A stretch of DNA of 59,086 bases, the filler included, from Dirinaria sp. TL-2023a (lineage: Eukaryota), in the NCBI GenBank assembly GCA_051941275.1. It is 3 parts of 3 records of this genome, joined end to end, with 100 filler letters (N's around TTAATTAATTAA, not from the genome) between each part and the next. Parts side by side here need not be neighbours in the genome. Positions count along the whole stretch, not along the records: positions 19,756 to 39,378 come from JAVEBF010000322.1; 2 more parts are not named here. One strand, 5' to 3'. This document shows positions 31,179 to 36,127 of this stretch, in pieces (position 1 is the first letter of the stretch; every line of letters starts with the position of its first letter). Made by a program: the position numbers and the translations under genes. The notes beneath the pieces are model-generated. The model did not search any database. It was given only the letters and a program-made list of their open reading frames with translations, and was not told where the DNA came from.

Positions 31179-31696
31179 TTTCAAGTGGCGCTACTTCAGC
31201 GACGGCTTAAGGGTAGTTCAAAAATCCGCTGAGGAATGATTCGCGGATTTTCATCAAGCATCTTCCTTAACTTCCAACCCTGATTCTTGAAATGCTATCA
31301 AACAACCCTGTGACAGAGCGTCTTCTCCAGGAAGTGGTTCGCGATGAGGCAATGCCTTTCACAAGCCGGCCACAAAAAGCCCGCATAAGGAGATATTTGA
31401 CATACCCAACTAAGTAACATCAATGTGGATCGTTGTGCTCGATTCCTATCGAAGGTGTTTGGACTTGCTTCCCAGAAATGCAAATTGAATTTACTAGGTC
31501 ATGATACAGAAGTACCGTAGCTATGTTATGTTATATCGCCTTCCACCAAATAAGGATTCATCCAAACATTCGTTAGTTTAGGGCTGTATCAGGTTTCGTC
31601 CTTATCCATGTCCACCTCACGTTTCCTTACCCGAGCCCTGACTCTGGCTGATTGTTCATCACTGTTCGAAGCCAAGGCCTCAGGCTGGAGACTGCC

Positions 31697-32224
31697 ATGG
31701 CCTACAACTATCCAATAGAGCCACTAGATCACGGTGCGTACATGGAATTCGCCCTCTCCCTAGCGAAAGAATCACCACCAAAGCCGACCAATTTCCGAGT
31801 CGGCGCTGTCCTTGTCGACGAAGGCTCAAACCGTATCCTTGCTACGGGATACACTCTAGAACTGGAGGGGAATACTCATGCCGAGCAATGCTGCTTCAGA
31901 AAGTTCGCGCAAGCGGAGAAAGTCCCTGAAGAGCAAGTCGGCCAGAATCTTCCGCGCAATTCGGTCCTCTACACTACCATGGAGCCATGCAATGAACGAT
32001 CAGTTGGTAACATGCCTTGCGTTGACCGGATCCTCCAGACTCTGAAAAGTGCCAGTGGTGGTGTCAAGACTGTCTATTTGGGAGTTGCAGAACCACAGAC
32101 CTTCGTCAGTAAGAATAGTGGGAGGTCGAAGCTCGAGGCGGCAGGCGTAGTGTGCATTGAGGTCCCTGGATTCGAGAAAGAGATCCTGGAAGTAGCGACA
32201 ATTGGCCATACCAAGGCTGAATGA
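31697..32224 (+). CDS. Cytidine-deaminase-fold DRAP deaminase (RIB2 C-terminal-domain-like, riboflavin synthesis)
   Basis: SPPKPTNFRVGAVL, TGYTLELEGNTHAEQ (HxE) and LYTTMEPC...PC zinc ligands. Confidence 0.85.
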   Translation: MAYNYPIEPLDHGAYMEFALSLAKESPPKPTNFRVGAVLVDEGSNRILATGYTLELEGNTHAEQCCFRKFAQAEKVPEEQVGQNLPRNSVLYTTMEPCNERSVGNMPCVDRILQTLKSASGGVKTVYLGVAEPQTFVSKNSGRSKLEAAGVVCIEVPGFEKEILEVATIGHTKAE

Positions 32225-32486
32225 TGATTCGGACTATGAATCAAGAGTTTAGTTCATCCCATACCAATGTCACGTGTTTCCGTGGCTCGCTTGTGTCACA
32301 GCGTCCTCTCCAAAAGCCAAGTATCGAAAATTACACCCGTTCGGCCCGTCCCCGATGATGTTCATCCGCCTCGATCATGATGTCAGTCCCTCTATGACGA
32401 ACCTGAAGGGTCCATGAGGCGTTCGAAATGTTACTGCCTCCTGCCCAGAGACACAGTAAGTATTAATCAGTTCATTCGTGCTCTAC

Positions 32487-33513
32487 ATGCGTCTTCCAAT
32501 TACACCCCCCACCATCTCAAGAAGCATCCGAGCAATCACACCCACATCCACATCCACGAGCATTTTCCTCGCAGCAAGAGCCAGCAAATTTGCGCCAGTT
32601 CTTCAAAACCGCAATATGACTACCGGTATTTTTACTGTAGCTCCAATTCGTCATTCGTACTCCAGCTAAGCCTTGGTAGTTGGGGATGACGTGAAGTCAA
32701 ACATTGAGAGCACCAACATCAAGACAGCTAGCGGTGTTTCGCTCGATGAGCACCAGCATACGCTCGTGGGCAGCGTTCTGGATGTATGTGTGGCGTTGAG
32801 CATATCTATCCAGCATTTTGCTAATGCATGAATCAGCTTTTCGCAGGTCGACCATCCTTAAAGAAGCTCTCACTATGGGACGACGAGGGAGTTTTCGAAG
32901 ACCCTCTCACAATTGCTACTGGACGCAAGCAGTACGAGCCTCAATGGGTTAGCACGTTCTTCACCCGTCGCTACCTCATGCTAACAAACCAATTAGTACG
33001 GGCTACAGACGGCTTTCAAGGAAATCGAGCGGCTCGGTCATGAGGTGACGGACGCTGGCAACCCCATCGGCCTAGATCTCAAGACCCGCTATGTAGTCAA
33101 GGGCATTGGCAAGGAGCAAGTGATCTCCAGCAAAGTCCAGATTTACTACGACAAGGCCACTGGGAAAATCACCAAAGTCCAGGACAAGTGGGACGGCAGT
33201 CTGCCCGATAGCTCTTTCACCAACGTAAGTCTTGGCCAATTGTTCAGTCTTTGGTGGTGGGTCCATTATTACGAGGGCTGGGCGTGGTGGATGTGGAGTT
33301 TCACTTGGGACACGTGGTGGTGGCAGGTGCGTGTTTTGCCTGCCACGTGTGACCCAGTGGAAAAACGAGTTGACGCCCACCTTTTAAATGAAAGGTTTGC
33401 TAATGGTGTATTTGTACGTACAGGTGTTCCGCCAACTCAACTCGGTGTCTGTGCCGAAGATGGTCGGTGTGCCGAAGAATGACGAGGAAGACGCGAAAAG
33501 AGGTAATCAGTAG
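32487..33513 (+). CDS. Conserved fungal protein (possibly SnoaL/NTF2-like); in-frame ATGs at 32487 and 32616; 4 introns, the last with alternative donors at 33225 and 33327
   Basis: Spliced frame MTTVGDDVKSNIESTNIKTASGVSLDEHQHTLVGSVLD|LFAGRPSLKKLSLWDDEGVFEDPLTIATGRKQYEPQW|YGLQTAFKEIERL...KITKVQDKWDG...|VFRQLNSVSVPKMVGVPKNDEEDAKRGNQ*; canonical donors, branch points and acceptors. Confidence 0.8.
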
Positions 33514-34513: not shown

Positions 34514-36127
34514 TTACGATTCACCGAATTCATAGCCACTGTATCTTTCCGACCTGATATTGGCAAGCGCGGCACGATACCTCGACAAACCTCCGAAGTA
34601 GAGTCGCGGCGCGACCTTCTTCCCCGGAATGTTTTCTCCAAAGAGCCACGAGCCTGTTTTCGAAAAGAGTGTCGCTCCGGCGATAGTCTCTAACTGTTCT
34701 TGCCACTTATCTTCGGCCTCTGGTGTGTTCTCAATCACTCCCGTACCGGTACCGCTCTTGCGGATTGCCTCTGCATGGGCGATCAAATCTGCTACAAATC
34801 GAGCGCCCTCTTCTGTTGCAGGTGGATTGTTGGCAAAGGGAGCCCCGGGCCCATTAACAAACAATAGATTTGGAAACTCTGAGGTGGTTATCCCTGTATG
34901 TGTCTTTGGGCCCTCGGCCCATTGATCTCGCAAAATTTTGTTTCCACGTCCCCTGATATCGATACGGGTATAAGAACCGTCAATTGCGTCAAAACCTGTT
35001 GCGAAGACGATCAGATCTGCCGGGTGGCTTTTGCCATCAGCTGTCGTTATACCATTAGAGGTCACGGCTGTTATGGGACTCTTTTTCAAGTCCACAGCGG
35101 AAACATTATCTTGGTTGAAACGTTCGTAATAGAAATCGTCCGTCAATGGTCGGCGGACGAATCAGTCGGAGGAAGACAGCACTTCAACCGTTTGAGGATC
35201 TTTGACAATCTCCTTGATCTTACTATGAATGAACTTGATCGCCTCTTTGTTCGCAGCTTCGTCAACCGCAAGGTCTGAAAACCCGCCGAACAAGAATCGA
35301 AATCCGCTTCCTTGGTCCCACAGGCTCTGGAATATCGCCTCTCTGTCCTTTGCAGAAACGGAGAAGACCGGTCGCGCAGGCTCAGCGAAACCAAAGCCCG
35401 CGGTCGACGTGAAAACATCTCGCCAAATTTCATCATATCGGGCATTAATGGCTCTGCGCTCTGCCGCATCGACCGGTCGAAGCGCGGCTGGCAGAATATA
35501 CTGCGCGTGCCTGATGAAGTGCGTCAGAGTTTTGGCATGTCCACCAAGCGAGCCGACCAGCTGAACACCAGAAGCACCGCTACCAATGATAGCTACGTGT
35601 TTGTCCTTGTACTCAATCTCCGGAGTCCACGTGGAACTATGTGTTGTCTGTCCCTGGAATTTTTCTAGGCCGGGAATGTCTGGCACGTTCTTCCTGTACA
35701 AAATCCCGATCGCGGTCACGAGGTAGCGGACCGCGAAAACGTCGCCGGTACTGACTTTGACCAGCCACAATTTGCGGTTCTCATCCCATGTCGCATCCGT
35801 GAGATCGGTGCTGAACTGGATATGCCGGTACAGATCATGCTTACGCGCCACTTCTTGGAAGTAGGCTTGGATTTCGGCCTGAGTCAGGTAGTTGTTTGGC
35901 CATGGAGACGACTGAAGCAGCTCCTTGTCCCACGAATAGCGATAGACGTAACTCTCGACGTCGCTTCGGGCTCCGGGATAGCGGTTCCAGTGCCACGTTC
36001 CCCCGACATCAGCTGCGTAATCGATGGCATGAACTTCAAGCCCTAGTTGCTTGATCAAATGCAGCGCATACAGTCCGCCAAAACCAGTGCCTACAACCAA
36101 TGCGTCGTAATATTTTTCAGCGGTCAT
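34514..36127 (-). pseudogene. Type I Baeyer-Villiger monooxygenase (cyclohexanone monooxygenase-like), intronless, interrupted by one in-frame TGA at 35162-35164
   Basis: GTGFGG and GSGASG Rossmann motifs, GGTWHWNRYPGARSD, BVMO fingerprint FQGQTTHSSTW and ATGFD. ORFs 36169-35162 and 35146-34514 are in the same frame: VEVLSSSD*FVRRPLTDDFYYE. Confidence 0.85.

Follow-up and report, generated by a model that had tools for sequence, protein, structure and literature searches.

The closest described systems to the gene analysed here are PTC7 and SKI7/HBS1, both of which are treated as unusual cases (PMC3597508). PTC7 of the Saccharomycetaceae contains a conserved stop-free intron that encodes a predicted transmembrane helix; the spliced form of the protein is mitochondrial, the unspliced form is found in the nuclear envelope, its targeting being attributed to the helix, and in one species the two forms have been hard-wired as separate genes (PMC3597508). 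SKI7/HBS1 is a rare and old alternative-splicing event of fungi, kept in many Ascomycota and lost in some lineages (PMC3597508; PMC7491326). Here we analyse a gene located in a 59-kb stretch of DNA from Dirinaria sp. TL-2023a, a lichen-forming ascomycete (Lecanoromycetes, Caliciales); the whole stretch of 59,086 nucleotides (nt) is referred to as the window, and all coordinates count along it. The last intron of this gene possesses two competing 5' splice sites, donor 1 and donor 2, which share a single acceptor and enclose a stop-free, tryptophan-rich segment of 34 codons, termed here the cassette. We consider it probable that the two donors constitute a switch, which would produce a short soluble protein and a long form with the cassette as a Trp-rich helical segment for binding to a membrane or lipid surface.

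With PTC7 the locus shares an optional stop-free segment that is conserved in frame across species, and it would also share the generation of two in-frame proteins from one gene by splicing. The two differ in that PTC7 relies on retention versus splicing of an intron near the N-terminus, whereas the gene in the window has competing 5' sites with one acceptor near the C-terminus; its segment is rich in Trp and is not an ordinary transmembrane helix, and the protein families are unrelated. With SKI7/HBS1 it would have in common an old fungal alternative splicing that diversifies the proteome and has undergone losses in some lineages. SKI7/HBS1, in contrast, involves alternative exons of a translation-factor-like gene that yield two proteins of different function, and is not known to involve a membrane cassette or a dual-coding donor. 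The comparisons described below give good support to a splice switch. The locus would then belong with cassettes in which a choice of 5' splice sites adds a membrane segment, and among these the dual-coding donor, the extreme Trp content and the conservation across classes are unusual. Literature searches found no paper on the cassette or on the protein family.

Organization of the locus

A search over splice-site combinations yielded a gene model of five exons (Table 1). Exon 4 ends with ..ACC AAC at 33224 and is directly followed on the plus strand by the GTAAGT of donor 1, while the GTGCGT of donor 2 is found 102 nt further 3', after CAG. Both donors share one acceptor CAG and a branch-point-like GCTAAT, the latter assigned by consensus only. 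The resulting introns comprise 199 nt (donor 1) or 97 nt (donor 2), exon 5 is read in the same frame either way, and the products would be a short form of 180-185 amino acids (aa) and a long form with 34 additional aa. The 102 nt that separate the donors have no stop when read in frame with exon 4 and translate to VSLGQLFSLWWWVHYYEGWAWWMWSFTWDTWWWQ; they include 12 TGG triplets, 11 of them in frame 0. A direct check of the sequence thereby bears out the preliminary description of this DNA, which had reported the two in-frame donors, the shared acceptor and the 11 in-register TGG codons. When this stretch was shuffled 5000 times with its dinucleotides preserved, 11 in-frame TGG were never reached (mean 3.3, maximum 9). 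The open frame by itself is unremarkable (1781 of the 5000 shuffles had no stop). Elsewhere in the 59 kb, a scan of all six frames in 34-codon windows with at least 6 in-frame TGG revealed no other open Trp-rich frame; three such windows were found, all interrupted by stops.

With two consensus donors, one acceptor and both products in frame, the locus has the make-up of a competing-donor cassette. Classification as an exitron was considered and rejected, since the 102 nt lack their own acceptor and are removed only along with the 97-nt distal intron. The opposite strand of exon 4 and the cassette contains a Pro-rich antisense open reading frame (ORF) of 103 aa (33072-33383, minus strand), as would be expected opposite a sense strand rich in TGG.

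Conservation of the cassette and of both donors

For a query made of exon 4 and the sequence downstream of it, 120 homologues were listed. In 117 of them the Trp-rich segment follows exon 4 immediately and in frame, 102 being ORFs that continue into the distal intron and 15 long spliced models, and three lack it. The 384 proteins fetched in total fall into 188 with cassette and read-through, 51 long spliced, 49 short spliced, and 96 fragments or unclassified sequences. The segment is annotated as an ordinary exon in many relatives, a point missed by the preliminary description. Annotated long forms occur in Lecanoromycetes, Dothideomycetes (Aureobasidium, Elsinoe, Cladosporium, Diplodia and several Pleosporales), Coniocybomycetes (Sclerophora, Chaenotheca), Leotiomycetes (Hyaloscypha, Claussenomyces) and, more diverged, Sordariomycetes (Apiospora, Diaporthe, Colletotrichum); the taxonomy of Dirinaria, Apiospora, Hyaloscypha and Sclerophora was looked up, and the remaining genera stand in the classes to which we take them to belong. 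As judged from these homologous sequences, the cassette spans at least five classes of Pezizomycotina. The homologues from Sordariomycetes and Leotiomycetes, which were compared as proteins, have V-G, V-R and A-S pairs where the cassette begins.

For the analysis at the DNA level we collected 80 metagenome loci, which together with the window reduce to 65 unique loci (labelled L). The cassette is present in 46 of these, counting the window, and its frame is open in 41. The length of the cassette varies in whole-codon steps only: 34, 35 and 36 codons are found in 28, 6 and 7 loci, respectively, of the 41 that possess an in-frame donor 2. An open frame, a donor 1 of the form GTRAGY and an in-frame donor 2 occur together in 37 of the 46 cassette loci. 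The hexamer of donor 1 is GTAAGT in 24 loci, GTGAGT in 13, GTAAGC in seven, and GCAAGT and TTAAGT in one each. At donor 2, 41 of the 46 loci have an in-frame GTR precisely where the conserved frame ends, with more variable hexamers (GTGCGT 18, GTGAGA 8, GTGTGT 5, GTGAGG 4, GTGGGT 3, and three others once each). The acceptor YAG directly precedes exon 5 in every locus where exon 5 was found, except for L030 (CAA). In the window, donor 1 matches the U1 consensus perfectly and donor 2 less well, a difference that fits the short form as the major product.

Within the cassette, substitutions follow a pattern typical of coding sequence. In the 19 unique cassettes of 34 codons, diversity per site at codon positions 1, 2 and 3 amounts to 0.18, 0.13 and 0.43 (non-TGG codons), as compared with 0.14, 0.10 and 0.42 in exon 4. 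Cassette and exon 4 have median NG86 ratios of nonsynonymous to synonymous substitution rates (dN/dS; 18 of 171 pairs usable) of 0.12 and 0.08, respectively. At Trp columns, two base changes lead to TTC, TTT or TAC, all of them codons for aromatic residues; Leu also replaces Trp. Intact cassettes contain from 3 to 12 Trp residues and a sum of Trp, Phe and Tyr that stays near 13, which suggests that an aromatic hydrophobic helix is kept, rather than the Trp codons. The preliminary description had proposed to look for conserved Trp codons with synonymous change at other sites: in most loci the frame is kept and third positions vary, but the Trp codons themselves are exchanged for Phe, Tyr or Leu. 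Its view that the segment is hard to account for as neutral intron agrees with the codon-type evolution and the open frames, and the comparison as a whole indicates that the cassette is a conserved coding segment under purifying selection.

Transcripts and isoform records

RNA evidence was obtained from four runs of one lichen sample, the only runs found to contain part of the stretch (word shares 0.08-0.11). The contigs assembled from them belong to a close relative and differ little from the window (e.g. 9 differences in 229 nt of exon 4). In all four runs contigs join 33224 to 33424, i.e. the short form, at a depth of 63-276, and a second contig of low depth, which is more diverged, contains the equivalent join. 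All short-form junctions are confirmed by the contigs of the relative, and the transcript extends from at most 32456 to at least 33648. The short form is real and abundant in this near relative. The short form also appears, spliced, in eight more records whose sole sources are lgn or jgi (P0084, P0266, P0274, P0283, P0281, P0299, P0301, P0336).

The NCBI models of Dirinaria and Heterodermia also represent the short form. The Dirinaria sp. protein P0076 (173 aa) is 100% identical to the window gene over exons 3-5 and uses donor 1. Its model starts in an upstream ORF (MSRVSVARLCHSV...; 32240-32380) and skips exons 1-2, and the RNA contigs of the relative favour a different 5' half; the N-terminus of P0076 is probably mis-modelled.

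Losses of the cassette and alternative explanations

Fourteen unique loci have no cassette and possess a plain intron of 53-81 nt with the same donor. In L050 and L051 intron 3 is kept and the last intron has been lost precisely from donor 1 to the acceptor, so that exon 4 runs into exon 5; this precise loss implies that the short form has been hard-wired and works alone. L062, which has no introns whatsoever, is possibly a transcript. One clade shows GGAGGT in the place of donor 2; there the cassette is still open in L016 and L020 and contains stops in L024 and L029, and decay thus appears to follow the loss of donor 2. The divergent pair L030 and L034 looks like a decaying copy: in L030 donor 1 has become TTAAGT and the acceptor has lost its AG, the cassette of L034 is interrupted by three stops, and exon 5 is frameshifted in both.

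A quick tree of 46 distinct exon 4 + exon 5 proteins, with the cassette left out, requires five changes of presence or absence; the tree was calculated from 103 columns only and has many open forks, and its strongly supported branches force at least two changes for the cassette-less group, which is nested among cassette-bearing loci. The loci nearest to the window on this tree (L010, L011, L025) have an intact cassette. The pattern fits an ancestral gene with two isoforms that was reduced to the short form in several lineages.

Several observations weigh against the switch, or against the role proposed for the long form. The donor-2 junction 33326/33424 is absent from the RNA records reached, i.e. 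from the contigs of the relative in one sample; these contigs leave 33229-33392 uncovered in all four runs and drop minor forms, so that the long form is neither shown nor excluded by them, and the RNA derives from a relative and not from the strain of the window. Records with lgn or jgi as their sole source included no long spliced one, even in a profile search aimed at the junction of cassette and exon 5, in which the lgn/jgi matches are in-frame read-throughs of the distal intron; all long spliced proteins for which the source was seen are NCBI gene predictions. It is comparative evidence, together with these NCBI gene models, that suggests the existence of the long form. Stops are present in the cassette of five of the 46 loci (L021, L024, L027, L029, L034) and one clade has no donor 2, i.e. 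the long form is dispensable in some lineages. The pairs usable for dN/dS are few and consist of related sequences. The cassette holds His, Glu and Asp and has a low hydrophobic moment; it is neither a textbook transmembrane helix nor a textbook amphipathic helix. Finally, a hairpin predicted over donor 2 was rejected as a general regulator (median z -0.57, with only 9 of 33 unique sequences below -1.64). What stands of the splice switch proposed in the preliminary description is the conservation of both donors and the use of donor 1 in the RNA of the relative; of the two junctions to be compared, 33224/33424 was recovered and 33326/33424 was seen in no RNA record, so the switch itself is deduced from comparison.

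The same observations could reflect a relic, i.e. an ancestral long form in a lineage that now uses only donor 1 and has had too little time for the cassette to decay. The relative's RNA with the short junction only, the short NCBI models of Dirinaria and Heterodermia, and decay or loss elsewhere (stops in five of 46 loci, no cassette in 14 unique loci, no such intron in three) all agree with such a history. Yet the cassette of the window is intact, with 11 Trp and both donors, as it is in its nearest loci on the tree, and its sequence is close to that of relatives from which it differs at many synonymous sites. Each TGG is moreover a single transition away from a stop, so that 11 of them would decay fast without selection. 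We therefore regard a relic as unlikely.

It is very improbable that the cassette is simply a constitutive exon, with the long protein as the real product and GTAAGT a mere Val-Ser pair picked by gene finders or by occasional mis-splicing. Such an exon would account for the 51 annotated proteins that contain the cassette and for its constraint at the protein level, but the high-depth transcript contigs use donor 1, 49 spliced records are short, and the precise intron loss in L050 and L051 hard-wires the short form. In addition, GTRAGY encodes the Val-Ser pair in 44 of the 46 cassette loci, which runs counter to local codon usage: in the remainder of these genes 30% of Val codons are GTA or GTG, and 26% of Ser codons are AGT. 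This near-invariance argues that the pair is held as a splice signal as well as two codons.

A purely RNA-level element, in which the TGG-rich stretch would serve as an intronic splicing or structural motif and never be translated, has an equally slim chance of being correct. G/T-rich runs can act as intronic enhancers, and in some lineages the last codons of the cassette and donor 2 (TGGTGGCAGG) pair with CCTGCCACC, an intronic element 9-30 nt downstream. The predicted hairpin, noted in L001, L010, L011, L021 and L025, is strong in some lineages of Lecanoromycetes and absent or weak in most Dothideomycete-like loci; L053 has one of similar strength from a different sequence. In the window itself it is weak, and its minimum free energy corresponds to z -1.8 against shuffles of the downstream 50 nt, with a pairing probability of the donor no higher than in the shuffles. 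No RNA family of the Rfam type (e.g. snoRNA) was detected in the intron at E <= 1. An RNA motif fits poorly with the codon periodicity of substitutions, the restriction of indels to whole codons, the open frame in 41 of 46 loci, the aromatic-to-aromatic exchanges that take two base changes, and the retention of donor 2 exactly at the end of the frame. Stops in orthologous introns, one of the signs by which the preliminary description would recognize a motif of this kind, are confined to the five loci named above.

A translational Trp sensor, also suggested in the preliminary description, in which eleven Trp codons would stall ribosomes under Trp scarcity and regulate the gene, is invited by the extreme density of a rare single-codon amino acid and is nevertheless barely credible, given that Phe, Tyr or Leu occupy the same columns, that the steady aromatic sum at 3 to 12 Trp suggests selection on aromatic character and not on the codon, and that the cassette is located near the 3' end of the coding sequence rather than in a leader.

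Protein family and structural model

Five full-length homologues were compared with Pfam and remained below the gathering cut-offs, with 13.5-22.7 bits for SnoaL_2 (PF12680, cut-off 27) and 14.6-16.5 bits for DUF2358 (PF10184, cut-off 24.3); Pfam searches with the single exons of the window and with the cassette alone gave no match. A sequence search of the PDB found no solved relative, and the names given to the family in the sources and in the protein atlas are limited to "hypothetical", "SnoaL-like domain-containing protein" or generic SnoaL-like/NTF2.

The fold is better recognized from structure. In the AlphaFold2 model of P0018, a relative with the long form (mean predicted local distance difference test score, pLDDT, 80), residues 20-139 form the alpha+beta cone of NTF2. 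Foldseek retrieved 109 chains of the PDB at E <= 0.001, with limonene epoxide hydrolase and PhzA/B at the head of the list and ketosteroid-isomerase-like chains among them; matches to the fold of this region have a probability of 1.00, TM-scores of 0.53-0.76 (target-normalised) and 11-19% identity. Modelling accordingly characterizes the gene product as a small NTF2/SnoaL-like protein. The modelled cone has the fold of the NTF2-like/SnoaL-like superfamily; in contrast to the window gene family, all matched chains are devoid of a Trp-rich C-terminal helix.

In the P0018 model the last strand of the domain is followed by a linker of low confidence (141-148), and the cassette forms helices at 153-157 and 159-178, with a further helix (181-197) that leads into exon 5 (pLDDT 66-79). 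Since the cassette lies outside the NTF2-like domain, its presence or absence should not disturb the fold.

Properties of the cassette and a possible mechanism

On the interface scale of Wimley and White, and likewise on their octanol scale, the best 19-residue window of the cassette, WWWVHYYEGWAWWMWSFTW, adds up to about -15 kcal/mol, and the short form contains no favourable window. The cassette of the window has neither Lys nor Arg. The predicted helix, the favourable partition sums and the conserved aromatic content would fit a membrane or lipid-surface anchor. A short helical segment with clustered Trp that partitions into the membrane interface is known from the membrane-proximal external region (MPER) of human immunodeficiency virus (HIV) gp41. 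The proteins are unrelated and segments of the MPER type are not splice-regulated, so this likeness serves as a lead only.

On the proposed mechanism, use of the upstream donor AAC/GTAAGT (33225) removes 199 nt and would give the short protein, probably the major product, and use of the weaker downstream donor CAG/GTGCGT (33327) would remove 97 nt and keep the 34 codons. The NTF2-like domain and the acidic C-terminal tail would thereby be separated by a segment that is helical, hydrophobic throughout and very aromatic, and the hexamer GTAAGT would act as a splice signal in one mRNA and encode Val-Ser in the other. The cassette may then attach an otherwise soluble protein to a membrane or lipid surface. 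Competition between the donors would set the ratio of the forms, and in some lineages the hairpin over donor 2 may contribute to it.

The 43-residue extension encoded upstream of the annotated-type start is rich in Lys and Arg, has no acidic residues and lies within the transcribed region. Similar extensions (MRLP.., MRPF.PQ..) are encoded upstream of the annotated Met in many homologues. By its sequence the extension resembles a mitochondrial presequence or an alternative start, and if it is a presequence, the membrane could be mitochondrial.

In its most specific version, which we put forward only tentatively, the proposal holds that the switch predates the split of Lecanoromycetes, Dothideomycetes, Coniocybomycetes, Leotiomycetes and Sordariomycetes, that one hexamer has been kept both as a 5' splice site and as Val-Ser, that a presequence-bearing, possibly mitochondrial NTF2-like protein is toggled between a soluble state and a new Trp-packed anchor, and that the hairpin sets the ratio in some lineages.

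Other features of the gene and its neighborhood

The coordinates of all features of the gene are collected in Table 1.

Table 1. Features of the gene with the Trp-rich cassette (positions in the window)
Feature	Position	Strand	Basis
Upstream in-frame ATG and 43-codon N-terminal extension (MRLPITPPTISRSIRAITPTS...)	32487..32615	+	ORF 32460..32669 in ORF list; RNA contigs of relative reach 32456
End of exon 1, annotated-type start ATG (MTT) to donor G/GT	32616..32625	+	Gene model; in the relative's transcript, equivalent ATG..ACG joined to 32679/32680
Exon 2	32680..32783	+	Gene model and RNA contig junction 32783/32837, GT..AG
Exon 3	32837..32947	+	Gene model and RNA contig junction 32946/32996 with cut +1, GT..AG
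Exon 4, part common to both forms (end of NTF2-like domain and linker)	32997..33224	+	Gene model, RNA contigs, structure model
Exon 4, putative long form	32997..33326	+	Gene model
Donor 1 GTAAGT (5' splice site of short form; Val-Ser codons of putative long form)	33225..33230	+	RNA contigs of relative; GTRAGY in 44 of 46 cassette loci
Trp-rich cassette, 34 codons, 11 Trp (intron in short form; exon in putative long form)	33225..33326	+	Translation, homologues, DNA of relatives, shuffles
Donor 2 GTGCGT after CAG	33327..33332	+	Comparison: in-frame GTR at +102, +105 or +108 nt in 41 of 46 cassette loci
Predicted hairpin, low confidence: end of cassette and donor 2 (GTGGCAGG) with intronic CCTGCCAC	33306..33357	+	RNA folding
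Branch-point-like GCTAAT (33399-33404) and acceptor CAG (33421-33423)	33399..33423	+	Acceptor: RNA join to 33424; branch point: consensus only
Exon 5, coding part (VFRQLNSVSVPKMVGVPKNDEEDAKRGNQ), stop TAG at 33511-33513	33424..33513	+	Gene model and RNA contigs; 3' untranslated region to at least 33648

Upstream of the gene, an ORF of 190 aa (31652-32224, plus strand) contains the motifs HAEQCC and PCNERS. In some lichen genome annotations (P0258 and P0259, 343 aa) this ORF is fused to the cassette gene, and these proteins contain the PF00383 deaminase domain. The ORF probably represents a cytidine/deoxycytidylate-deaminase-like gene in its own right, in which case faulty annotation is the probable origin of the fusions. 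Other annotation artefacts are found in P0341-P0343, in which the gene is fused to neighbours with PF10451, PF01336 or PF00383, and in P0340 from Umbilicaria vellea, in which the cassette is read in the wrong frame (..NSMVVAPLWRGVGLVDVEFYLEYVVVAG..). Downstream, the minus strand contains an ORF of 215 aa (34514-35161, ..FATGFDAIDGSY..), which we take, from its motif, to be probably one exon of a flavin-monooxygenase-like gene.

Implications

Conserved alternative splicing that diversifies proteins is rare in fungi, and the locus described here would add a case that spans at least five classes of Pezizomycotina. Its comparative signature consists of a donor that would double as two codons, purifying selection on the cassette, and repeated lineage-specific loss or hard-wiring. 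Two forms of the protein would also explain why annotations are split between models of about 176-179 aa and about 210-215 aa, a split found even among the models of Aureobasidium pullulans and among those of Xanthoria. It is unusual for a protein element in which roughly every third residue is Trp to be conserved at this evolutionary range, and we consider the segment a candidate membrane or lipid-droplet anchor.

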